A program made the translations under genes and the position numbers. Below the pieces are notes generated by a model, which saw only the letters and a program-made list of their open reading frames with translations, was not told the DNA's origin and made no database searches. Positions 28,975 to 46,421 of a stretch of 46,421 nt of DNA are shown piece after piece. Position 1 is the first letter of the stretch. Every line of letters starts with the position of its first letter. This DNA is from a virus. Taxonomy: Duplodnaviria; Heunggongvirae; Uroviricota; Caudoviricetes. Where the stretch lies: the IMG/VR virus record IMGVR_UViG_2541047773_000007. One strand, 5' to 3'.

Positions 28975-29992
<1,018 letters not shown>

Positions 29993-29996
<4 letters not shown>

Positions 29997-30304
29997 ATAT
30001 ATTTATGATGAGGACGCTCGTGCTTATTGGCAGGATTTTCAATCTTAAAGGAGTACTGATGCTGCAGATAAGACTCAACTTTTTCTGACAATTTTTCTGC
30101 TACTTCCAGGAAGACTTGCCGGACGCTCCTTCTGGCTGCTGCCTCATAAAACTCCAGCGCAGCTCCTTCAACACGGTCCATGGCGACATCCAGGCCAAAA
30201 ATTTCACCGTCAAAGCGTTCTTTGTCCTGTAAGGCTACAGTTACCGTAACTTTATTCTCAAAATTACGGACTCCTTTCACAACCAGTTCATAGTCTTGAG
30301 TCAT
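29993..30304 (-). CDS. Hypothetical protein between holin and endolysin (YdfR-like position)
   Basis: 103-aa ORF coupled to flanking lysis genes; function unknown. Confidence 0.5.
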
Positions 30305-30308
30305 TGGA

Positions 30309-30524
30309 TTACTCTCCTCTCGCAGCCTTACGCCTGTCTTCTTTAATCTTGAAATAAAGATTTGTCAGATACGTCAGCAGGCCAAAAACCAGGCTACCCA
30401 GCACACCGATTGCAGCCCACTGTGACGGAGTTACTTTATCGAGTAACTGCAATGCCCAGAAACCAGCATTACCCGCCGATGTGCCATAGGCAACACCTGT
30501 TGTTAACTTATCCATTGATTTCAT
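30309..30524 (-). CDS. Class II holin (pinholin, S21-like) with dual-start motif
   Basis: [71 protein letters not shown] closely resembles phage 21 S21; track ORF has an upstream extension. Confidence 0.85.
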
Positions 30525-30743
30525 ATCCTCACCCCGATGAACACGGATGGTGCAATATGTTTGAAAAGATCGGAGTCTACGGGGTAGTTTTGACAGCACA
30601 CGCTGTTCTCAACGGCGCTAAAGAAACATACACATTAAAAATGTGAGTAATTATTTTGAAAGAAAGTCATATATAAAATAATAATACGAGAAATGTTTTC
30701 ATATTTAGTGTACTGTATACGGCCATTTATACAGGAAAAGCCT

Positions 30744-30914
30744 ATGTCAGAACGTAAAGACTCAAAATCACGCCGTAATTATCTCGTTAAATGTTCCTGC
30801 CCAAACTGCACCCAAGAGTCAGAACACAGTTTTTCAAGAGTACAAAAAGGTGCCCTTTTGATCTGCCCTCATTGCAACAAAGTATTCCAGACAAATCTTA
30901 AAGCTGTAGCCTGA
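30744..30914 (+). CDS. Small putative zinc-ribbon protein
   Basis: 56 aa from ATG with CxxC...CxxC (CSCPNC...CPHCNK); opposite strand to lysis genes. Confidence 0.35.
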   Translation: MSERKDSKSRRNYLVKCSCPNCTQESEHSFSRVQKGALLICPHCNKVFQTNLKAVA

Positions 30915-30970
30915 TTGATTTTATTAGTAACAAGTATTTTTTATATTTTAATAATATATTTAAAGCAGAT

Positions 30971-30996
30971 AATAAAAAACCCGCCTGAGCGGGTTT
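30971..30996 (-). terminator. Rho-independent terminator downstream of cspB
   Basis: Hairpin AAACCCGC-CTGA-GCGGGTTT followed on the minus strand by a T-run. Confidence 0.55.
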
Positions 30997-31277
30997 GAGA
31001 TTGTGGTGCTTTTTGTGGGAGTCATCCACTTACGCACTTTGTTTTGCCATGCCAGCAGTTAGCTTCTGCTGTAAAACTATTCATGCAGCAAACCTGCACT
31101 TCACCACAATGGTTAGCATACTTTTCCTGATTAAGATTTTGCCAAATATGCTGGCCATTGTTTCATGTATTGGACCTCCTTAAATTTTATTAAAGAAATC
31201 CAATATTCACTACTCTGTCCGTATCTCTACTCAGGCATCAGCCTTCTTCGTTATCGTATACAGACGAGCGATGAATT

Positions 31278-31493
31278 TTAATCAGTAATGATGACATTTG
31301 CTGCTGCAGGACCTTTAGCACCACTCTCTATAGAGAAGGTAACCTTTTGACCTTCAAATAAGGTTCGATAATTATCATTCTGAATCGCAGAAAAATGCAC
31401 AAACACATCTTTACTACCATCAACAGGAGAAATAAAGCCGAAACCTTTATCAGCGTTAAACCATTTTACTAAACCAGTCATTTTATTTGACAT
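31278..31493 (-). CDS. cspB: Cold shock protein, CspA family
   Basis: 71 aa [43 protein letters not shown]...; Qin position equals cspB. Confidence 0.8.
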
Positions 31494-31793
31494 TCTACAT
31501 TCCTTAACTTGAGCCTTTCGGCATAAATGGTTTGCATAACAGAAACGACTTCGTACTTAATTGGAGAGACTCAAAGAAGGAATAAGTGAATAACACCTGA
31601 AATGAGAACTGCTTTAGTAAACTACTTCGTATATCGTCTGTTCTTCAAACCGACGCAATCATTAACGCATAGTTGAACATATGAAGCAATGTTTATTTTA
31701 GACATCCAGCCATCTTCAACCCCATCAAAAAACTATAGCTTTCTTCAGGAACGTGTGTATAGTGCGCCAAGTTATCAGTATTAAGGAATTTTT

Positions 31794-32006
31794 TTGTCCC
31801 GTAAAATGACAGGAATTGTCAAAACCTTTGACGGCAAAAGCGGCAAGGGTCTTATCACCCCATCCGATGGTCGTATCGATGTCCAGCTTCATGTTTCAGC
31901 GCTCAATCTCCGCGATGCAGAAGAAATTACCACCGGATTACGCGTGGAATTTTGCCGGATAAATGGTCTGCGTGGCCCTTCAGCTGCCAATGTTTACCTT
32001 TCATGA
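31794..32006 (+). CDS. cspF: Cold-shock-like protein (CspF/CspH type)
   Basis: 70 aa [41 protein letters not shown]...; apparent TTG start, with an in-frame ATG four codons downstream. Confidence 0.8.
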
Positions 32007-32298
32007 GCTATATTAAAGCTTTAATTTCAGGCCCCATCGGATCACACATGGAGAGTTTTTATGAATAACCCCGTCTGTCTTGATGACTGGTTGATTGGCT
32101 TTAAAAGCTTATGCTGTACTTTGGCCGTAATAGCTCTGCTAATAATATAATAAGCAGACTCATTGTGTTTAGGGACATTGTACTGGAAGAAAACATTTTA
32201 AACATCAGGCAAATAACCAAGTCACCAGCTAAATAATAAGTTAACAGACATGAGTCCCGGGATGAGATTCAACATTACCATTGCCCCATTTAAAGCAC

Positions 32299-32330
32299 AA
32301 AACCCGCTCATCAGCGGGTTTTCTACTTTT
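32299..32330 (+). terminator. Rho-independent terminator (after cspF; possibly also tR'-like for the late leader)
   Basis: Hairpin AAAACCCGCT-CATCA-GCGGGTTTT followed by TCTACTTTTTCTT on the plus strand. Confidence 0.5.
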
Positions 32331-32427
32331 TCTTAACGTCGGGTATACAAAGCCCATCATTGAAAAAATTTTATCCATATTTTTTGAAAAATGCAAACAT
32401 CATGTCGCCATCTTCAGCAAAAATCAT

Positions 32428-33180
32428 TTATCTCGTCACCTTCCTCAATTGCGCTTCCGCGTATGCTTCTTCCTGCCAGCACTTTGTTACCAGTTTACCA
32501 ATGACGTCCGCATACCCCTTATACCACTGATAATCGGTCAGGTCTGGTACCAGCTTCTGGACATGACGTCGTGCCAGCGTGGTCGGTAAACGACTAAACC
32601 GGTTTCCATTACAACGCCCACAAATCTTATATACCGGTACGCCATGAAACCGGGTTCTTTTTTCATCCAGAACAATCCCTTTACCCTTACACCCTCTGCA
32701 CGCTGTGCTGACTTCGCCCTTACCATGGCAATGCTGACATAGTTCCTTCACCCATTCTTCCTTGATTACAGATTCCCCGCGTCTGTAGTGTTTCACCACT
32801 TCGCGCAATACATTATAAAATCCCGTACCTGAACAATGCTCACAGCGAGCCTTACTTGCCGCAGACCTGGAGTAATCAGCAAAGGCAAAACTCACGAGGT
32901 AAGGAATAATCTGTAACCGGATTTCTTCACTCAATTTGTTCAATGTCGGGTTATCCAGTGCCATCGCGTAATTGAGCAGACCTTCAATCGCAAACTGAGG
33001 ATCCTGAACACCAACTTTTGCCAGGAATAAGGCAAAACCAAGCGGAGCTTTCGACTGCACCATCCCCTGCGCAGCCATCACATCTGTTATTGTTAAACCA
33101 CCCGAGCCTGTCGCCGGTGCGTCATCACTCAATTTTGGAGATTTTGGGGAGTAATATTTTGGTAAAGCTTCAAGGTTCAT
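32428..33180 (-). CDS. quuQ: Late-gene antiterminator Q (phage 82/21 type, zinc-binding)
   Basis: 250 aa with Cys clusters CEHCSGTG...CQHCHGKG...CRGCKGKG...CGRCNG; located immediately upstream of the lysis/late region. Confidence 0.8.
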   Translation of the reverse strand: MNLEALPKYYSPKSPKLSDDAPATGSGGLTITDVMAAQGMVQSKAPLGFALFLAKVGVQDPQFAIEGLLNYAMALDNPTLNKLSEEIRLQIIPYLVSFAFADYSRSAASKARCEHCSGTGFYNVLREVVKHYRRGESVIKEEWVKELCQHCHGKGEVSTACRGCKGKGIVLDEKRTRFHGVPVYKICGRCNGNRFSRLPTTLARRHVQKLVPDLTDYQWYKGYADVIGKLVTKCWQEEAYAEAQLRKVTR

Positions 33181-33193
33181 GCTCGTTCTCCAC

Positions 33194-34243
33194 TTACGCC
33201 AGTACGCCTATTGCCAGCGCACGATCGATAAAACGAAATATCAGCTCCAGCTGGGAGCCATACTTCTCTTCAAATGCCACGGTATTCGCATGCAGCTCGT
33301 CGTGATGCTTTCTGCACAAAGGCAACACAAAGAGATCATGTGCTTTGGTTCCCATTCCACCCTGCCCGTGACCAATCAGATGATGCGGATCGTCGGCTGG
33401 CATACCGCAGCAAGCACACGGCTGTGTCTTAACCCAGCGTGTGTATTTCTCCTTAACCCAACGGTGACGTTTAGGCAGCTTCATGAAAGATTCCGGAGAC
33501 TCTGGATCAACGGTGATGCTTACCACCGTCTTTTCCTGTGATGGGTTTTGTTGCTGGTGGGCGTGAGGCAACGGTGCAAGATTTTTTGTGCGCTGTTTCA
33601 ATATGCTGGTGGCGGTCTGCTCTCCCGGTACGATGTCGCTTTCGCGGTACACCGAGCAGTTTTTTTCCGCTGGTAATCCCAGCGAGCGACGTAATACCGC
33701 TTCCGGTAGCGCGTCCGCCACCTGATTGCGGACCGCCCACCAGGATAATTCAGCCAGAGATAATTCACGCTCCTGCGTACCGCTTATTGCGTGACCGATG
33801 ACGTCAATCATCCATGCTGACAGGTTTTGATGAGCAAGTTGCTCGAGTGATTCGGATGTCTGGTCACGCAGCTGGTTGTCGCAGTGCCAGCACAACACCA
33901 TTGCGCCGGTACCATAACGGTGAATAACGGTTTCGCTGTGATGATAATCGCCGTGTGGCCACTGGCAGGATTTAATATTGCGCAACAGCCAGTCAGACAA
34001 TGCACCAGCACCACCAGCAGCACGAATTACCCGTGCGTTACTGAAAAACGGCAGCAATGTTTTGTCTTCCACCAGCGGCTGGCGAACGGTAGGAACGACC
34101 CCGGACGGCAGATTACGCATGCTTTTCGGTTCCGGCTCCACTAGTACCCGGGTATTGTGGAATACCGGCATGGATTCACGGCCCGGCTTAACGACCACCA
34201 GCCCGAGTTCCGGTACCAGAACAGGTCGAAGTAATACCCGCAC
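33194..34243 (-). CDS. ydfU: DUF968/HNH-like prophage protein (YdfU-like)
   Basis: 349 aa; C-terminal CACCGMPADDPHHLIGHGQGGMGTKAHDLFVLPLCRKHH resembles an HNH-like zinc motif; Qin position. Confidence 0.6.
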   Translation of the reverse strand: MRVLLRPVLVPELGLVVVKPGRESMPVFHNTRVLVEPEPKSMRNLPSGVVPTVRQPLVEDKTLLPFFSNARVIRAAGGAGALSDWLLRNIKSCQWPHGDYHHSETVIHRYGTGAMVLCWHCDNQLRDQTSESLEQLAHQNLSAWMIDVIGHAISGTQERELSLAELSWWAVRNQVADALPEAVLRRSLGLPAEKNCSVYRESDIVPGEQTATSILKQRTKNLAPLPHAHQQQNPSQEKTVVSITVDPESPESFMKLPKRHRWVKEKYTRWVKTQPCACCGMPADDPHHLIGHGQGGMGTKAHDLFVLPLCRKHHDELHANTVAFEEKYGSQLELIFRFIDRALAIGVLA

Positions 34244-34244
34244 G

Positions 34245-34523
34245 TTACCTCCAGATGCGTTGCTGGAATGTACGGGACGGACGCGGTGGGCGTTCGGAGT
34301 AAGGCAATCTGACTGAGATTATCCAGTGACGGTAGTCGAGACTAAGGGCTTTCTTAACCTCGTATCCGCGCCTGCGGTAACACTGAATTATCCATTCAGC
34401 CTGCTCTTCAGTGCATGGAGGGTGTTGGAACCATTCAGACTTGAATGCGTAAGAATACCGCTCGTGCGTGCAGACAAGAACGGGCGAATTATCAGAATTG
34501 TAATATTTTACGTTGCGTGCCAT
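34245..34523 (-). CDS. rem: Small prophage protein (Rem-like position)
   Basis: 92-aa ORF coupled downstream of ydfU; identity as Rem is positional only. Confidence 0.4.
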   Translation of the reverse strand: MARNVKYYNSDNSPVLVCTHERYSYAFKSEWFQHPPCTEEQAEWIIQCYRRRGYEVKKALSLDYRHWIISVRLPYSERPPRPSRTFQQRIWR

Positions 34524-34589
34524 CGGTTTTCTCCGGTGGCACGGTGTTACTCAGCGGGAGTTCAGCCCCGCGCAAGATTGTAGATGAGT

Positions 34590-34841
34590 TTATTCTTCTG
34601 CAAAAGCTGAAAAGCCTGCTTTTATTCCGATCTCTTTCAGTGCCTGTAATGAAGTGACAAACTCACCTTCGCGCAAGATAAATCCGTCTGTCACTCGACC
34701 ATCCACAAAATTAATTAACGCAGCCCCATTCTTTCGCAAACACATAATGCGGTAATGACTAACAAGATTTCCATTTTCAACGCACACAGCATAGAGGCCA
34801 TCTTCACAAAAAATTTTACGCAGTTCTTCGATGTTCATCAT
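34590..34841 (-). CDS. Hypothetical protein
   Basis: 83-aa ORF between rem-like gene and hokD; no recognised motif. Confidence 0.4.
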   Translation of the reverse strand: MMNIEELRKIFCEDGLYAVCVENGNLVSHYRIMCLRKNGAALINFVDGRVTDGFILREGEFVTSLQALKEIGIKAGFSAFAEE

Positions 34842-34957
34842 CAGAATCCTTCCGGATAATTAGCTCTCCCCTTTAAGGGACCATCCCTCTTATCCCTGCG
34901 CGCTACTTAAGTATTTTTGATTCTATTCCGGCACCGTCCAGAACTTCAAACGCGTTG

Positions 34958-34990
34958 AAAATAAAAACAAAAACCCGCCGAAGCGGGTTA
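34958..34990 (-). terminator. Rho-independent terminator downstream of hokD
   Basis: Hairpin AACCCGC-CGAA-GCGGGTT followed on the minus strand by TTTTTGTTTTTATTTT. Confidence 0.5.
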
Positions 34991-35057
34991 AGTGCGGGTG
35001 CGTTGAGGATGCCTGCCACATCAGAGGTGGCGAGGGATTTCTCCCTCGCCGGGTCTC

Positions 35058-35213
35058 TTACTCCTCAGGTTCGTAAGCTGTGAAGACAGCGACCTCCGTC
35101 TGGCCGGTTCGGATTCGTACCTCGCAGAGGTCTTTCCTCGTTACCAGTGCCGTCACTATGACGGTTAAACAGATGACGATCAGGGCGATTAACATCGCCT
35201 TTTGCTGCTTCAT
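35058..35213 (-). CDS. hokD: Hok-family membrane toxin (HokD/RelF)
   Basis: 51 aa MKQQKAMLIALIVICLTVIVTALVTRKDLCEVRIRTGQTEVAVFTAYEPEE; the track ORF is this plus an in-frame upstream extension. Confidence 0.9.
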   Translation of the reverse strand: MKQQKAMLIALIVICLTVIVTALVTRKDLCEVRIRTGQTEVAVFTAYEPEE

Positions 35214-35716
35214 AGCCTGCTTCTCCTTGCCTTCCGGCACGTAAGAGGCTAACCTACATGTGTCTAGCATGAAATTGGCCTCAGATTAATGTTAAGCGTC
35301 TTGCAGGACGCGTAATGTTAACTGGGGCTTTTCTCTATCTGCCTTTGGTGTTCATGCCCGAGGCAGATAGCCTCAAGCACCCGCAGCCATTCTACTTAAC
35401 TACCTTTACCTCGCCAATATGAAATCAGTCAGAAAGGCGATCCATAAGAACAATAGCAAGACAATAAATTGCCATTACAGCCGCAATAGCCAGCGCACAC
35501 TTGAGAACCAGCACGACAACCTCCTGTATTGGACGTACACCAGTCCTGATAAATATGAGGCGGCCTCTTAAGTGATTCAATACAACTATTAGGTATAATT
35601 AGTCAGATTTTTTCTGTGGAAATGGGACATTACAACCTATCGCCACCAACAATTGAGACGCTAATCGCCCCATCTCGTAACCTTATCCAAAACGAGGCCT
35701 AAATCATGGCAATTGA

Positions 35717-35938
35717 CTAACGTTTCTGAGTAGATAATGCCCTGAAGTAAGCGTTGCTAATCGATTGATAAATCTCAATATCTTCAGAACCTGCAAGTTC
35801 GACATACTCACTCTCACATGTAGACGGTTGAGCAGTGTGTTGGACACTTCTCGTGTTCGAGTGGATTGTTCCTATACTAACTTCTGTTAATATAGGTAGT
35901 TCCAACTGGTTTCTGTCGTTTTTTTTCATATAAATCAC
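35717..35938 (-). CDS. Small hypothetical protein translationally coupled to deaminase gene
   Basis: 73-aa ORF (GTG start, or ATG three codons in) overlapping the deaminase stop; no recognised motif. Confidence 0.4.
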   Translation of the reverse strand: MIYMKKNDRNQLELPILTEVSIGTIHSNTRSVQHTAQPSTCESEYVELAGSEDIEIYQSISNAYFRALSTQKR

Positions 35939-37035
35939 TCAAGCCTCAACAAGTTAAGTTTATTACTATCAACTTCAGCAATAACTACCTGTTCTAATTT
36001 AGGAATCGCTTTGAGACTAACGCTATCCACAGGCATAGCCGCACCCTCTGTCGCTAACTCTAGCACCCCAGCTTTAGATTTTCGAGATCCAGATTCAAAA
36101 AGCTCAAGAAACCTAGTTGGAGCTACTCCATCAAATTGTATCAATTTCACTTTTTCATCAGTCTCGATTACTGATTCGGTCATCGCATCCGAATGAAGTT
36201 TAAGAGCTAAGCTTTTTCTATACGGCTCAATAAAATATACTTCAGAGATACCAGAAGCGATAATATGCCTTGCGCAGGAATGACATGGATAGGTTGTTAC
36301 AAATATTTTTCCGCCTAAAATTCTTTCTCCTGCCACACGAGATGCGCCAAGAATCGCGTGCATTTCTGCATGAACCGCTCTTGAAAACTCTATTAAATCT
36401 TTTAATCGTGAGTTTTTTATAATAGTTTGAATCGCCGCTTCTCTTTTTTTTACAGGGATTATTTTTTCCTGTACAAGGCTATCAATGACAACTTCAGCCA
36501 ATATTCTCTTTTCCGCATCATTCGAGCAATTTCTATTTTGTAATGTATAACAACGATGATCAGGATCAATAACTTTTAAGCGGATAGATTGTTTACCATA
36601 GAGACCACCACCATTACGAGGCACATCATTCCAACCGGTAGAAAGAAGTTCTCCAGATGAAGATGTTACTGCAGCACCAACTTGTCTTGATAGACATGCA
36701 GAATTACGAGCCGCTGAGGTGGCTGCATACATTGCATTTTCCTCTTCAGTCGGTGATATAACTGAACTCCTAAAAATTAGCTTAAAGAAACGTTCCAGTT
36801 TAGATAGAATTTGGCCTTTAGCATCGGCATTTCCTGGCTCTGCCAACCCACTGTCAACCCGCAAAAAGTAATCACACTTCGGGAAAGTGTCTCTAACTGA
36901 TTGCCCATGATCGAACTCTTCACCAGAATCAGTATTGATTAGTTCAGCAATATCTTCAACGCTTAGTCTATTAATTTTTGAAAGATTTTCACGCCTTGCC
37001 TCTAAAGGGGAAAATACACCTATAGAGAAAATCAT
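35935..37035 (-). CDS. Cytidine/dCMP-deaminase-family protein (CDA-fold zinc deaminase); candidate nucleotide-depleting defence/toxin effector
   Basis: HAEMHAI then 25 aa then PCHSCARHI is the canonical H-A-E / P-C-x-x-C zinc-binding signature; first ATG at 37035; track ORF (TTG start at 37206) has a low-complexity N-terminal extension overlapping the upstream ORF. Confidence 0.8.
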   Translation of the reverse strand: MIFSIGVFSPLEARRENLSKINRLSVEDIAELINTDSGEEFDHGQSVRDTFPKCDYFLRVDSGLAEPGNADAKGQILSKLERFFKLIFRSSVISPTEEENAMYAATSAARNSACLSRQVGAAVTSSSGELLSTGWNDVPRNGGGLYGKQSIRLKVIDPDHRCYTLQNRNCSNDAEKRILAEVVIDSLVQEKIIPVKKREAAIQTIIKNSRLKDLIEFSRAVHAEMHAILGASRVAGERILGGKIFVTTYPCHSCARHIIASGISEVYFIEPYRKSLALKLHSDAMTESVIETDEKVKLIQFDGVAPTRFLELFESGSRKSKAGVLELATEGAAMPVDSVSLKAIPKLEQVVIAEVDSNKLNLLRLE

Positions 37036-37573
37036 TTTTCCATAGATTGATTTCAACAATCTCAAGCTCAGAAGAGTTTTTAACTGAGTCAATAATATGA
37101 CAAATTTTTTGATTTTTAATCTTACTCGCTTCCCCTTTGCTGGATTCATTAACAATATCATCAAATTCACCAAAGTTTTTTTTACGCTCGGCGCTAATTT
37201 TAGCAATAGCTAATTTTGCAAGAATATCACTACCATAAATTTCACGAAGTTTATCACCCACAGTTATAAGTGACTTGAATTTCTTTAGATTAGTGCTTTC
37301 ATCAATATTAATTGATGTATATTTTGAATTAATCCGGATTAGATCACTCAAGCGTATGTCGTATGTTTTATAGCCATATTTTTTAAGCGAGAATGATATC
37401 TGCTCAGCAGTCTCATGTAGCGGTGAACCAATTGGCCCACAAAGTGCGATTATAATCTCTGGAGTAACACTGTCTTTTATTTCTTGAGTTGCATTAATTG
37501 TTGACAGCTCGGCAACATCATCATTCCCAACAAGTTGAAACTCTTGACTTTTATCTAAGGCTGTGCCTTGCAT
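36989..37573 (-). CDS. N-terminal NTPase/kinase-like ORF overlapping the deaminase ORF (separate protein or frameshifted N-terminal domain)
   Basis: 194-aa ORF with degenerate P-loop-like IIIALCGPIGSPLHE; 3' end overlaps the deaminase frame. Confidence 0.55.
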   Translation of the reverse strand: MQGTALDKSQEFQLVGNDDVAELSTINATQEIKDSVTPEIIIALCGPIGSPLHETAEQISFSLKKYGYKTYDIRLSDLIRINSKYTSINIDESTNLKKFKSLITVGDKLREIYGSDILAKLAIAKISAERKKNFGEFDDIVNESSKGEASKIKNQKICHIIDSVKNSSELEIVEINLWKNDFLYRCIFPFRGKA

Positions 37574-37864
37574 GCCCTTATCCTAATTAATAGTATTTTT
37601 CCCTCTTTATAGCTAATTAAGATAAATGTTGCAAAGTAATATTGCACATGAAACTTGAGTTAGTAATCCTTTTGACTAGATGGTTTGACCTGCGCCCTAT
37701 AGATAAACACACTACGCTGTTAGCAACGTTCGCTTCTGGCACAAAGCAGGCACCACACTAGTTCTTCCCTGTACCATAAAAATGTCAATTCACATATGAA
37801 CAAATGCTATTTAATCTAAAAATGTCTATAAATACCGTGTAATTCACTGATAAAATGCCAATAT

Positions 37865-38242
37865 TCACTGAATAACTTCACTCCTCCGGTACTCGCGACA
37901 GATTATGTTTAGGTGACTGTCGTAGCGACGTATTTCTCCGTCAGGTAATGACCAGATAAGGTCCGGATCAACCACAGCGGGTTTCTTCACCTTCGCCCTA
38001 GAGAGTTTTTTGCGGGCATTTTGCCAGTCCTTTCGTGCCTGTTGAGACGGGAATAACGCGTAGCCGGAGTTGTATACATAACAACTGGCAACCAGCTCTC
38101 TGGCAAGAATGCTCATCAGATATCTTGTCGCACCTGTCTTGGCTTCCAGTTGCCGTAACGTCTCACGACCGCTCTGGCGCACGAGTTCCACCACCTGCCC
38201 TTTAATTTTTTCCCGCTCTTCTTGTGTAAAAACTTTTGCCAC
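37865..38242 (-). CDS. Hypothetical protein downstream of replication gene
   Basis: 125-aa basic ORF; function unknown. Confidence 0.4.
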   Translation of the reverse strand: MAKVFTQEEREKIKGQVVELVRQSGRETLRQLEAKTGATRYLMSILARELVASCYVYNSGYALFPSQQARKDWQNARKKLSRAKVKKPAVVDPDLIWSLPDGEIRRYDSHLNIICREYRRSEVIQ

Positions 38243-39248: not shown

Positions 39249-39750
39249 AATTCCATCCAGCTTTTTGTTGGTATTGCTGTCGATACGCAAGCTTGAAAGC
39301 AATTGCTTTTTCTATAAGTTCGTCAGTTTCACGATCTACAACGGCAGGATCTGCAAAAAGCAGTCCGGACTCCACCACATCGCCATATTCTTTATTTAAC
39401 CCAGCGATCATGTACGTAATACTCTTTCCGTCACTAATTTCACGATACAACCTGAAATCACTAATCCGGATAGCCTCCATAATTGCAGGCACTAGCGCTG
39501 TGAACTTTTCACGCTTATCCCTGGTGTCGATAGCCTTCCAGCGTTCGAATATCTTCACTCGATTAACGCTAAGCGCTCGCTGATCAACCGCGCCACCTTC
39601 ATATGTGACACGCTGAACATCGATGTTCGGGCGCTCTTTCAAAGCCCAGAATGCTTCAGTGATTAATATCGTCGCCTGCTCCTGTGTCATTCCTGGTCGA
39701 CATATCCAGGCATCCAGAGCCTCACGAGCCTGTTCAGGAGTGATTTTCAT
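39229..39750 (-). CDS. Hypothetical protein in cII/YdaT-like position
   Basis: 173-aa ORF directly downstream of dicC, overlapping the replication gene start. Confidence 0.4.
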   Translation of the reverse strand: MKITPEQAREALDAWICRPGMTQEQATILITEAFWALKERPNIDVQRVTYEGGAVDQRALSVNRVKIFERWKAIDTRDKREKFTALVPAIMEAIRISDFRLYREISDGKSITYMIAGLNKEYGDVVESGLLFADPAVVDRETDELIEKAIAFKLAYRQQYQQKAGWNYEPSFC

Positions 39751-45125: not shown

Positions 45126-46421
45126 ATGAGAGAAGTTGAAATGAAATATCCGACAGGCGTGGAAAACCATGGAGGGAAATTACGTATCTGGTTTGTTTAT
45201 AAAGGCGTAAGAGTCAGGGAAAATCTGGGGGTTCCTGACACAGCAAAAAACAGGCGCGTTGCAGGTGAACTACGCTCCTCTGTTTGTTACGCAATAAAAA
45301 CTGGTGTTTTCGACTATGCAAAACAGTTTCCCTCCTCACGCAATCTGGAAAAATTTGGTGAGGCCCGACAAGATTTAACCATAAAAGAACTGGCTGAAAA
45401 ATTTCTGGCACTGAAAGAAACTGAAGTCGCCAAAACATCACTCAACACATACCGTGCCGTCATCAAAAATATCCTGAGCATAATCGGTGAAAAAAATCTT
45501 GCCTCATCGATTAATAAAGAAAAATTACTGGAGGTTCGTAAAGAGCTACTGACTGGATACCAGATCCCCAAAAGTAACTATATTGTTACACAACCAGGGA
45601 GATCGGCTGTAACTGTAAATAATTACATGACAAATCTTAACGCCGTGTTCCAGTTTGGTGTTGATAACGGTTACCTGGCAGATAATCCGTTTAAGGGGAT
45701 CTCGCCATTAAAGGAATCAAGAACCATTCCGGATCCTCTTTCGCGGGAGGAATTTATCCGTCTTATCGATGCGTGCAGAAATCAGCAAGCAAAAAATTTA
45801 TGGTGTGTTTCTGTTTATACTGGCGTTCGCCCTGGTGAGCTGTGTGCACTTGGATGGGAGGACATAGATCTGAAAAATGGAACAATGATGATCAGGAGAA
45901 ATTTAGCAAAAGACCGTTTCACGGTACCAAAAACACAGGCGGGAACCAATCGGGTCATTCATCTTATTAAGCCAGCAATCGACGCTCTCCGGAGTCAGAT
46001 GACATTAACGAGACTGAGCAAAGAGCATATCATTGATGTTCACCTCAGAGAGTATGGCAGAACAGAAAAACAAAAATGCACCTTTGTTTTTCAACCTGAA
46101 GTGTCAGCGAGAGTAAAAAATTATGGTGACCATTTTACCGTTGACTCAATAAGGCAGATGTGGGACGCAGCGATAAAACGTGCCGGACTCCGCCATCGAA
46201 AATCATATCAGTCGAGACATACTTATGCCTGCTGGTCGCTGACAGCTGGTGCTAACCCGGCATTTATAGCAAACCAGATGGGCCATGCAGATGCGCAAAT
46301 GGTATTTCAGGTATACGGAAAATGGATGTCTGAAAACAATAATGCACAGGTAGCTTTGTTAAATACACAGTTAAGCGAGTTTGCCCCAACCATGCCCCAT
46401 AACGAAGCAATGAAAAATTAA
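45126..46421 (+). CDS. int: Tyrosine integrase
   Basis: 431 aa with C-terminal catalytic region (...RHTYACWSL...HADAQMVFQVYGKW...); ends at the window edge. Confidence 0.9.
   Translation: MREVEMKYPTGVENHGGKLRIWFVYKGVRVRENLGVPDTAKNRRVAGELRSSVCYAIKTGVFDYAKQFPSSRNLEKFGEARQDLTIKELAEKFLALKETEVAKTSLNTYRAVIKNILSIIGEKNLASSINKEKLLEVRKELLTGYQIPKSNYIVTQPGRSAVTVNNYMTNLNAVFQFGVDNGYLADNPFKGISPLKESRTIPDPLSREEFIRLIDACRNQQAKNLWCVSVYTGVRPGELCALGWEDIDLKNGTMMIRRNLAKDRFTVPKTQAGTNRVIHLIKPAIDALRSQMTLTRLSKEHIIDVHLREYGRTEKQKCTFVFQPEVSARVKNYGDHFTVDSIRQMWDAAIKRAGLRHRKSYQSRHTYACWSLTAGANPAFIANQMGHADAQMVFQVYGKWMSENNNAQVALLNTQLSEFAPTMPHNEAMKN

Follow-up and report, generated by a model that had tools for sequence, protein, structure and literature searches.

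Anti-phage dCTP deaminases (Tal et al. 2022; NF041025, antiphage_deaminase; PADLOC dCTPase) are encoded in mobile elements or defense islands and combine a kinase-like N-terminus, which carries a nucleotide-binding loop, with a zinc-binding CDA C-terminus. Mutants of the kinase motif and of the zinc site lose both defense and dCTP depletion (bioRxiv 10.1101/2021.04.26.441389), and in DcdV, Walker A/B mutations and zinc or Glu mutations abolish activity (bioRxiv 10.1101/2021.03.31.437871). AvcID (DcdV-DifV), a type III toxin-antitoxin system of V. cholerae VSP-1 (Hsueh et al. 2022, 2023), pairs the deaminase AvcD, in which both domains are needed, with AvcI, a non-coding RNA that is encoded 5' of avcD and binds AvcD; AvcI disappears once transcription is shut off. 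AvcD is activated by rifampicin and not by spectinomycin. The tested relatives, which belong at least in part to lineages other than that of the protein considered here, come from V. cholerae, V. parahaemolyticus, P. mirabilis, ETEC (H10407), and E. coli AW1.7 and U09. The AW1.7 protein tested by Tal et al. (2022) has 576 residues, with zinc ligands C370 and C401 and loop residues G29/C30, a numbering that differs from that of the protein considered here and therefore places it in another lineage. The anti-phage dCTP deaminase family has been described and modelled as a single gene, and a 2026 review counts the trigger of dCTP deaminases as unknown.

Below, we discuss a member of this family found in IMG/VR record IMGVR_UViG_2541047773_000007 (Caudoviricetes), whose entire 46,421-nt sequence is referred to as the window. 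We interpret the locus, with a probability of about 0.85, as a mobile two-gene anti-phage cassette in a Qin-like prophage, in which gene 1 is a broken deaminase of the AvcD/DcdV family and gene 2 is an intact, conserved partner. The locus shares the kinase-like and CDA domains and the mobile setting of the dCTP deaminases of Tal et al. (2022), but its deaminase gene is frameshifted. As in AvcID, a single small genetic element lies next to the deaminase and points in the same direction; unlike AvcI, this one codes for protein, lies 3', and evolves under purifying selection. The features of the locus, in window coordinates, are as follows.

35646–35680, minus strand: 35-bp remnant of a gene that lies 3' of the cassette elsewhere, matching the 3' end of that gene
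35681–37729, minus strand: mobile AT-rich cassette, 2049 bp, 37.4% GC, delimited by homology boundaries
35717–35929, minus strand: intact small partner gene (70 aa), its ATG 5 nt past the deaminase stop codon
35888–35908, minus strand: N-terminal motif QLELPIL, residues 8–14 of the small protein, a near-variant of the clamp-binding hexapeptide
35935–37573, minus strand: dCTP deaminase gene (AvcD family; PADLOC, NF041025), a pseudogene with one extra base
35935–37035, minus strand: C-terminal fragment ORF (366 aa), whose first residue corresponds to M180 of the intact protein
36274–36288, minus strand: PCHSC motif in the deaminase ORF
36352–36372, minus strand: HAEMHAI motif in the deaminase ORF (HAE at 36364–36372)
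36989–37573, minus strand: N-terminal fragment ORF (194 aa), native residues 1–171 followed by 23 out-of-frame residues
37060, minus strand: inserted A causing the frameshift, after codon E171, in helix 167–180 of the kinase-like domain
37421–37444, minus strand: degenerate P-loop CGPIGSP within the N-terminal fragment ORF
37606–37634, minus strand: candidate sigma-70 promoter TTGCAA-N17-TATAAA, read by eye, ~30 nt upstream of the deaminase ATG
37714–37729, minus strand: GC-rich hairpin (terminator-like match) at the upstream cassette edge, coinciding with the homology boundary at 37729

The features described in an initial annotation of this DNA are all confirmed in place, every one on the minus strand. 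The upstream ORF with its degenerate P-loop does overlap the deaminase ORF, the small ORF is closely coupled to the deaminase stop codon, and the segment described as AT-rich has a GC content of 37.4% versus 51.1% and 47.8% in its flanks and 48.2% in the whole window. The zinc signature proposed for the deaminase ORF, HAEMHAI and PCHSCARHI, is also present, although the two halves are separated by 21 residues and not by the 25 originally given.

A deaminase gene disrupted by a one-base insertion

Together, the two large ORFs make up one 545-aa dCTP deaminase gene, interrupted by a single extra base. Alignment to an intact locus (L001) places the change at GAG-TTG-TTG of the intact allele, which reads GAGATTGTTG in the window. 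The insertion lies outside any homopolymer run or repeat and splits the protein at residue 171/172, within a helix placed by the secondary structure of the AlphaFold2 (AF2) model. Only the inserted base and two substitutions distinguish the window from the intact allele (1638 nt, 545 aa), which is present in KK19-02 and SJC33. The C-terminal fragment ORF has an ATG start in a frame that is open already from 37206, and it encodes the final two strands of the kinase-like domain along with the whole deaminase domain. RefSeq annotates the fragments as separate coding sequences, a "hypothetical protein" and a 'deaminase' (WP_001531703.1).

Profile comparisons, which had been suggested as a check on the family assignment, bear it out. 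Pfam dCMP_cyt_deam_1 (PF00383) matches the deaminase ORF (E = 9.7e-16), and PADLOC dCTPase matches both halves (E = 1e-134 and 1e-30), which align to neighboring stretches of its profile. Against NF041025, which has an equivalog cut-off of 400 bits, the two unrepaired fragments of the window reach 80.2 and 353.7 bits, while the protein repaired by removing the base at 37060 scores 463.1 bits and covers profile positions 1–434 of 437. The fragments fall under the cut-off and the repaired protein passes it; therefore, the locus is a disrupted member of this family. The initial impression that it matched nothing characterized does not hold: at 100% identity, the repaired protein matches WP_021516101.1, which bears the RefSeq name "anti-phage dCTP deaminase". 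It also aligns over its full length with V. cholerae AvcD from a VspR-linked locus (34% identity over 514 columns), with which it shares a degenerate Walker A motif and the HAE/PCxxC motifs. In family alignments, C45, G46, and G49 of the nucleotide-binding loop and H401, A402, E403, P429, C430, and C433 of the deaminase domain are invariant.

Structure prediction agrees with the proposed AvcD/DcdV-type architecture of a kinase-like N-terminus and a dCMP-deaminase C-terminus. In the AF2 model of the deaminase (pTM 0.80), the N-domain resembles the adenylate-kinase-related proteins 3lw7 and 3h0k (TM 0.74–0.77 for the pair, 0.77 for 3lw7) as well as UMP/CMP kinases, and Foldseek matches the C-domain to the dCMP deaminases 2w4l, 1vq2, 4p9c, and 7fh4. 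Searches by sequence and by fold found no solved structure of a full-length relative. Owing to the insertion at 37060, the two domains are not on one polypeptide in the window. Judged by its profile matches and sequence identity, the enzyme belongs to the known anti-phage dCTP deaminase (AvcD/DcdV) family, and there is nothing new in the enzyme itself.

Gene 1 in the window is a lineage-specific frameshift pseudogene, and the split reading frames, initially taken as a feature of the architecture, are the product of one inserted base. The intact protein WP_021516101.1 occurs on 720 contigs and the frameshifted fragment ORFs on 283 and 293; because these fragments recur so widely, sequencing error was rejected as the cause of the frameshift. 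Among 5426 complete E. coli genomes, 7 have the locus, each time within a prophage; four of these copies are frameshifted and three intact. Since the insertion cuts the kinase-like domain in two, we infer that the window's deaminase is most probably inactive, by analogy with relatives in which the changes studied were point mutations and not a split of the protein. Counting against loss of function, the C-terminal fragment retains an ATG and a complete deaminase domain. For annotation, the two halves are best treated as one pseudogene whose lesion is common to about 290 E. coli assemblies.

Other readings of gene 1 carry little weight beside that of a recent pseudogene. It is improbable that the two products, of 194 and 366 aa, come together in trans as an enzyme that is active or regulated in another way, as part of a three-gene variant, even though both ORFs are long and annotated by RefSeq as separate coding sequences, the second has an in-frame ATG at 37035, and the allele persists on about 290 contigs. 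The break falls inside a helix of the central α/β kinase-like fold, where there is no domain linker, and the N-terminal fragment ends in a tail of 23 out-of-frame residues. In addition, the deaminase is one long ORF in 80/80 species-level homologues examined, the Shine-Dalgarno sequence ahead of 37035 is weak, and the inserted base and two substitutions are the sole differences from the intact allele, as for a recent mutation. Programmed +1 ribosomal frameshifting or transcriptional slippage, which would give full-length protein at a low, regulated level, is more improbable still. The frames overlap by 218 nt (36989–37206), and rare AGG/AGA codons occur shortly before the upstream frame closes (TAT AGG; TTT AGA), but the insertion is not within a slippery run, and the intact alleles, which form the majority of copies, need no such event. 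Moreover, any shift past 37060 would put the wrong sequence at conserved residues 172–190, where L172, Y177, G185, and V186 are invariant or nearly so in family alignments. Phase variation was rejected together with programmed frameshifting, given that the insertion is not in a repeat. Finally, there is next to no chance that the locus belongs with the ComEB/Dcd-like housekeeping dCMP deaminases or that the frameshift is a sequencing artefact. The CDA motif is common to ComEB (TIGR02571, E = 4e-11), yet the TIGR02571 score of 43 bits is far under the cut-off of 219. The restriction of the locus to a few E. coli genomes, always within prophages, and the foreign composition of the cassette, found in several mobile contexts, also speak for the accessory cargo that had been proposed at the outset. 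The frameshift allele itself is found in 283–293 independent contigs from several sources.

A conserved small gene downstream of the deaminase

The initial annotation had proposed extra partners on both sides of the deaminase ORF. The upstream ORF is the N-terminal third of the same protein, and the downstream small ORF is a genuine partner. Its product is MKKNDRNQLELPILTEV...EDIEIYQSISNAYFRALSTQKR. A homologous small ORF lies 3' of the deaminase in 79/80 species-level homologues, across phyla, and in every locus with a deaminase identity of at least 58%. Homologues counted at species level came to 524 in all. When the short N-terminal motif is also considered, a motif-bearing small ORF is found in 77/80 species-representative loci versus 2.2% of control ORFs, and two further loci of the 80 have a small ORF with a degenerate motif. 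The association holds in the opposite direction, as reverse look-ups from two small proteins both land directly after a deaminase. An HMM of the small family has a sole match at E < 0.05 among 1326 ORF segments of the window, the small partner itself (E = 1.8e-6), and the exact small partner sequence occurs on 676 contigs. A dN/dS of ~0.21 indicates purifying selection. The small partner has no family in Pfam, NCBIfam, PHROG, or PADLOC, no source names the protein, and no paper on it was found in the literature; neither the NF041025 nor the PADLOC model includes a small downstream ORF. On these comparisons of sequence and gene order, the small downstream ORF is a conserved, so far unnamed partner of the deaminase, and it is the new element here. 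AF2 predicts residues 1–47 of the small protein to be disordered and residues 48–68 to form a helix.

Among the loci compared, the 3' small ORF and the AvcI arrangement are mutually exclusive, and loci of Vibrio and of the E. coli 1303 type, which make up the AvcI-RNA clade, are without the 3' small ORF. The 156-nt conserved leader upstream of the deaminase in the window gave no sign of an AvcI-like RNA (fold z −0.14, no Rfam match), a search to be read with the caveat that AvcI is without a conserved sequence model. No AvcI-type ORF was found upstream in the window either. One ORF (37620–37757) was considered (E = 0.76 only) and dismissed because upstream ORFs of this type are not enriched in 87 loci of the window's clade (1 match). 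The Vibrio avcI locus contains a conserved 174-nt ORF whose product ends in KQLGW. Homology between the Vibrio avcI ORFs and the small protein reaches an hhalign probability of only 22.8%, which is a lead and not a result.

These observations can be assembled into a model of the cassette. Gene 1 has the NMP-kinase-like N-domain and the zinc dCMP-deaminase C-domain of the AvcD/DcdV family. In its characterized relatives, shut-off of host transcription by the phage leads to deamination of dCTP and dCMP, which deprives phage DNA synthesis of dC. Gene 2, a 70-aa product probably translationally coupled to gene 1 and predicted to be disordered save for its C-terminal helix, may serve as a regulator or adaptor of the deaminase in the window's clade. 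It would thereby hold the place taken by the upstream AvcI RNA in the Vibrio clade, and it may act via the β sliding clamp. This role for the small protein is one that we infer from its position and short motif. The interest of the locus lies in this neglected gene, which offers a concrete hypothesis for how dCTP deaminases outside the AvcI-RNA clade could be silenced and switched on. It also suggests that constructs and defense-finder models built from the deaminase alone may miss part of the system.

A clamp-binding-like motif in the small protein

The N-terminus of the small family carries the relaxed consensus Q-L-x-L/F-x-F/L. Across 77 loci, the first position is Q in 100% and the second L in 88%; the fourth is L in 70% or F in 23%, and the sixth is F in 60% or L in 19%. 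Published clamp-binding motifs follow Q-phi-x-L-x-L and QL[S/D]LF, with Hda QLSLPL and Pol III alpha QVELEF as examples. Known β-clamp partners such as Hda and the toxin SocB share with the small protein a Q-phi-x-L-x-[L/F] motif in the first 3–18 residues, located in a segment predicted to be disordered and followed by acidic residues; beyond the motif, the small protein has no sequence relationship to either. Strict published patterns fit 44/77 motifs (57%), and the remaining 43% deviate, mainly by F or I at position 4 or by I, V, or M at position 6. One of these is the window's QLELPI, whose I replaces the L or F of the published patterns. The motif resembles a β-clamp-binding motif, and the small protein may be a putative clamp binder.

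A possible alternative to clamp binding, which we hold to be somewhat short of an even chance, is that the small protein is a type-II-like antitoxin that docks on the deaminase through its N-terminal motif as well as its C-terminal helix, with turnover of the small protein after phage shut-off freeing the enzyme. Its small size, disorder, and tight coupling to the deaminase would suit such a role, as would its mutual exclusion with the 5' AvcI arrangement and the fit of strict clamp-binding patterns to only 57% of motifs. The upstream ORFs of the AvcI clade resemble the middle and C-terminal motifs of the small protein and have a hydrophobic N-terminus without the Q, which fits docking on the deaminase rather than on the clamp. 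However, across phyla the Q at position 1 is retained in 100% of loci and the L at position 2 in 88%, whereas the remaining protein drifts freely, a pattern that suits a universally conserved target such as DnaN. The consensus QL[ES]LDF also differs by one residue from sequences with proven clamp binding: QVELEF, QLSLPL, QLDLF, and QLELF. Clamp binding and deaminase inhibition are not mutually exclusive roles. A broader conjecture, tentative and on balance rather unlikely, is that most dCTP deaminase defenses are two-gene systems in which a ~70-aa disordered protein binds the β clamp through an N-terminal Q-L-x-L-x-F and the deaminase through its C-terminal helix. If true, dC-nucleotide depletion would be coupled to the state of the replisome, or a protein switch would replace the AvcI RNA, and dCTP deaminase systems would consist of two genes versus the single gene of present descriptions. 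A corollary would be that the Vibrio avcI locus descends from, or overlaps, a homologue of the small gene moved to the 5' side.

Cassette mobility and prophage setting

In the cassette, a short leader precedes the dCTP deaminase gene, and a 36-bp tail follows the small partner ORF. The cassette boundaries are observed directly: exactly the span 35681–37729 is shared at ~96.7% identity by three unrelated contexts. The first is a small integrase island that also has a 396-aa gene in the opposite orientation (loci L006–L011), the second is a group of Klebsiella/Raoultella lambdoid prophages (L012–L017), and the third is the window's Qin-like prophage. A further copy, 96.1% identical, is found on a 708-kb plasmid of Pantoea dispersa, and copies with 97–99% identity are spread over more than 12 genera of Enterobacterales. 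No sequenced phage in INPHARED carries the cassette. The remnant that adjoins the cassette in the window recurs as 35–37 bp at L006 6662–6696, inside the 396-aa minus-strand gene, and at L012 6620–6656; ~750 bp are deleted next to it in the window. At the other end, TTGCAA-N17-TATAAA is a putative promoter, which the consensus scanner leaves unlisted because the last −10 base is A. The same scan gave no support for a strong promoter, with 7 sites found versus 8.0 expected.

Within the prophage, the cassette occupies the interval that had been equated with the relBE-flxA slot of K-12 Qin, and the homology break agrees with this placement. Homology to K-12 breaks off at window position 35227, immediately before hokD on its upstream side, and picks up again within ydfX at 39471; between these points, K-12 has relE, relB, ydfV, flxA, and ydfW. 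This arrangement suggests that a horizontally mobile cassette landed in a complete Qin-like prophage, at an accessory-gene position flanked by the replication genes and hokD. Both prophages thus have an interval between the replication/dicC side and hokD-rem, with different cargo: the window's prophage holds replication genes, DUF977, the deaminase cassette, and a complete sok/hokD, with sok (35208–35382) as the sole Rfam match.

Disrupted dCTP deaminase gene

Three consecutive ORFs lie on the minus strand at the locus:
36989-37573, minus strand: upstream ORF of 194 aa with CGPIGSP
35935-37035, minus strand: downstream ORF with an ATG start, in a frame open from 37206, carrying HAEMHAI, 21 residues and PCHSCARHI
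35717-35929, minus strand: small ORF of 70 aa, its ATG 5 nt past the preceding stop codon

The ORFs, motifs and AT-richness described in the initial annotation are all present, with 37.4% GC in 35681-37729 against 51.1% and 47.8% in the flanks and 48.2% in the whole window; its CDA signature also holds, except that the spacing is 21 residues and not 25. Both large ORFs match the PADLOC model "dCTPase" on adjoining stretches of a single profile, the upstream ORF at positions 137-255 (E 1.4e-30) and the downstream ORF at positions 235-549 (E 1.2e-134). Among 5426 complete E. coli genomes, the locus is present in seven. In four of them it matches the window at 100% identity and is annotated as "hypothetical protein" plus "deaminase"; in the other three it is one base shorter and annotated as "anti-phage dCTP deaminase". 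Alignment places the extra A at window 37060, outside any homopolymer run, where GAG-TTG-TTG becomes GAGATTGTTG, and removing this base yields a gene for the 545-aa protein WP_021516101.1. The NCBIfam equivalog NF041025, which has a cut-off of 400 bits, scores the repaired protein at 463 bits and the window fragments at 80 and 354 bits.

The two large ORFs, earlier read as split reading frames, are thus a single broken gene. The frameshift is a genuine inherited allele, because the fragment ORFs recur on 283 and 293 contigs; the intact protein is found on 720. The initial annotation named the family correctly but considered that the locus could not be placed, whereas WP_021516101.1 already carries the name "anti-phage dCTP deaminase". 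The locus is a genuine member of a known defence family, probably inactivated by the frameshift.

Predicted structure and consequence of the break

The two computational checks proposed earlier, profile search of both ORFs and structure prediction, agree on the family. The AlphaFold2 model of the intact protein (pLDDT 79.5, pTM 0.80) has an N-terminal alpha/beta domain (strands 40-45, 69-74, 157-162, 181-187 and 235-238) and a deaminase domain from about residue 276. With Foldseek, the former matches the adenylate-kinase-related proteins 3lw7 and 3h0k (TM 0.74-0.77) and the latter the dCMP deaminases 2w4l, 1vq2, 4p9c and 7fh4; neither sequence search nor Foldseek found a solved structure of a full-length relative. 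In the model, the break at residue 171/172 falls inside helix 167-180, directly past a Walker-B-like strand, so neither fragment would contain a complete kinase-like domain. Published relatives need both domains: V. cholerae DcdV (also called AvcD) loses activity in Walker A/B mutants and in zinc or Glu mutants (bioRxiv 10.1101/2021.03.31.437871), and the E. coli AW1.7 enzyme no longer gives defence or dCTP depletion when its kinase loop or zinc site is mutated (bioRxiv 10.1101/2021.04.26.441389). Since both domains are necessary there, the deaminase copy in the window is probably inactive.

E. coli harbours several unrelated anti-phage dCTP deaminase lineages (records H70-H123). The window-type deaminase shares 32% identity with the 1303-type enzyme of E. 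coli, which adjoins a prophage integrase at yjjG; other E. coli deaminases are 64-72% identical at the DNA level, some of them on 4.6-kb plasmids (NZ_CP148280.1, NZ_CP128792.1). At the compared loci L008, L009, L022 and L135-L138, a deaminase of the window clade has as its neighbour Abi_alpha, an Mrr-like nuclease, the R subunit of a type I restriction enzyme or a SacI restriction-modification system, neighbourhoods typical of defence islands.

A conserved small partner gene

The enzyme belongs to a known family; the novelty lies in the small partner gene. It is intact in the window, and its identical sequence is found on 676 contigs. A homologous ORF of 62-75 aa lies behind the deaminase in every locus with at least 58% deaminase identity. 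In a scan with one genome per species, the best 80 of 524 relatives were examined (40-60% identity; Proteobacteria, Bacteroidota, Acidobacteriota, Nitrospirota, Bacillota, Verrucomicrobiota, a CPR genome and one archaeal MAG). In 77 of these 80 loci there is a small ORF (46-86 aa) whose first 32 residues include the motif Q-[LMIF]-x-[LFIM]-x-[FLIMV], and its start lies 3 nt (median) from the stop codon of the deaminase; among control ORF segments from the same loci, the motif occurs in 84 of 3854 (2.2%). Two loci have the small ORF with a degenerate motif, and one has a different gene, of 238 aa, directly behind the deaminase (L117 2499-3212).

The small proteins align in three short conserved stretches with free-running linkers between them. 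The first is the N-terminal motif and the second, in the centre, is K/N-V-[IV]-x-[FL]; the third is a C-terminal helix that reads IYxSISNxYF in enteric and Burkholderiales-type loci and roughly [LI]xRI[LI]xRxxH[FI] elsewhere. The gene has a dN/dS of ~0.21, and AlphaFold2 predicts residues 1-47 as disordered and 48-68 as helix. Reverse look-up from two small proteins finds the gene again directly behind a deaminase on the encoding contigs. Every source annotates the protein as "hypothetical", and no family for it was found in Pfam, NCBIfam, PHROGs or PADLOC; a whole-library HMM search returned only 42 representatives, nearly all standalone proteins of 63-84 aa. A deaminase followed 3' by a small protein with a clamp-binding-like motif is the typical architecture of the window clade, and as far as we found it is undescribed.

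The motif logo gives Q (100%), L (88%), x (E/S), L (70%) or F (23%), x (D/N), and F (60%) or L (19%), with acidic residues next. Published clamp-binding motifs are QL[S/D]LF and Q-phi-x-L-x-L; tight E. coli binders include Hda QLSLPL (N-terminal), Pol IV QLVLGL and Pol III alpha QVELEF, and Bacillus examples include QLDLF, QLNLF, QLSFF and QLELF (PMC12309361; bioRxiv 10.64898/2026.05.27.728225). Strict clamp-binding patterns are matched by 44 of the 77 small proteins, and the version in the window, QLELPI(L), comes close, with I in place of the expected L or F. From this short motif alone, we hypothesize that the small protein binds the clamp; we found no paper linking AvcD or dCTP deaminases with DnaN or clamp binding. 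On an IMG/VR contig (L048 4027-4542), the ORF that follows a distant deaminase (34% identity) encodes 172 aa instead of ~70 aa; it contains RQLELF, an exact match to the clamp-binding pentapeptide reported for B. subtilis Pol I.

Relationship to AvcID of Vibrio

The window-type deaminase shares 34% identity with AvcD of V. cholerae, from a VspR-linked VSP-1-type locus. There, AvcI, an RNA of ~174 nt directly 5' of avcD in the same orientation, keeps AvcD inactive and decays when transcription stops. Only 156 nt upstream travel with the window cassette, and this leader shows no excess folding (z -0.14), no Rfam match and no AvcI-type ORF; the window clade therefore lacks the one feature that defines the AvcID type III system. 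The window clade pairs its deaminase with a 3' small protein, whereas AvcID places the AvcI RNA 5' of the deaminase, and the AvcI-type clade (V. cholerae, V. parahaemolyticus, E. coli 1303 and several viral contigs) has no downstream small ORF.

The ORFs directly upstream of avcD nevertheless resemble the small downstream protein of the other clade, a lead drawn from sequence comparison. In each of seven independent lineages, the upstream ORF is the best match to the small-protein HMM, ranking first among 56-158 ORF segments per locus, with individually marginal E values of 0.07-0.8. These ORFs lie in the avcI/difV region:
L132 2253-2423: V. cholerae
L134 2215-2418: V. parahaemolyticus
L035, L036, L047, L050 and L005: further compared loci

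Common to both sets are the central V-[IV]-x-F and a helix at the C-terminus, which in the upstream ORFs ends in ...KQLGW (also given as ...AKQLGW), ...QKLTW, ...ERLTW or ...SKINW; on a viral contig (L033), a downstream ORF starts with QLDLDF and ends in ...RKLSW. Profile-profile comparison with hhalign is weak (22.8% probability, E 9e-4). The absence of the motif Q from the upstream ORFs points to the deaminase, rather than the clamp, as a possible docking site of the N-terminal element.

The Vibrio upstream ORF is itself the difV/avcI element of 174 nt. In published work, start-to-stop and no-RBS difV constructs still inhibit DcdV, and AvcD is activated by rifampicin but not by spectinomycin, so the conclusion that AvcI acts as RNA stands. 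The study of those constructs also found that difV loses activity when 18 nt are deleted from its 5' end or 4 nt from its 3' end; read as an ORF, it then lacks its first six codons in the one case, and in the other its stop codon together with the last base of the closing Trp codon.

Prophage setting and cassette mobility

The window spans an entire Qin-like lambdoid prophage of 46.4 kb, which lies in reverse orientation, carries genes for terminase, portal, capsid and tail and has the following ends:
45141-46421: integrase
1-1284: ydfJ, truncated

The whole of 1-46421 represents the complete form of an element left only as a remnant in K-12. Homology to K-12 covers 29939-35227 and resumes from 39471; the K-12 interval between carries relE, relB, ydfV, flxA and ydfW, which bears out the relBE-flxA slot named in the initial annotation. 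Only 2049 bp (35681-37729) are common to two further contexts, at ~96.7% identity: a small island with 136-aa and 90-aa genes upstream and, on the other strand, a gene for 396 aa, and Klebsiella/Raoultella lambdoid prophages, with the cassette at the equivalent position past the replication genes. A 35-bp remnant (35646-35680) matches the 3' end of the gene next after the cassette in these contexts, so ~750 bp have been lost in the window. The deaminase protein is 97-99% identical across more than 12 genera of Enterobacterales, and a cassette copy lies on a Pantoea plasmid; none was found in the sequenced phages of INPHARED.

Cargo just past the DUF977 gene differs between lambdoid prophages (window 37865-38242), and E. 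coli SE11 carries a DUF262 protein and a TPR protein at the equivalent position instead (L004 5327-8586). More than 2200 E. coli genomes conserve ~130 bp past DUF977 ahead of the point where cargo starts, which suggests that this position is a cargo hotspot. In E. coli KK19-02, which has an intact deaminase, the neighbouring DUF977 gene is annotated as frameshifted (L001 5672-6036), the reverse of the window. A complete hok/sok module (35058-35382, minus strand) adjoins the cassette:
35058-35213, minus strand: hokD, inside a 70-aa mok-like ORF
35208-35382, minus strand: sok RNA, full-length match, 117 bits against a gathering score of 59

K-12 homology ends 14 nt upstream of hokD, which in K-12 is preceded by relE and relB instead.
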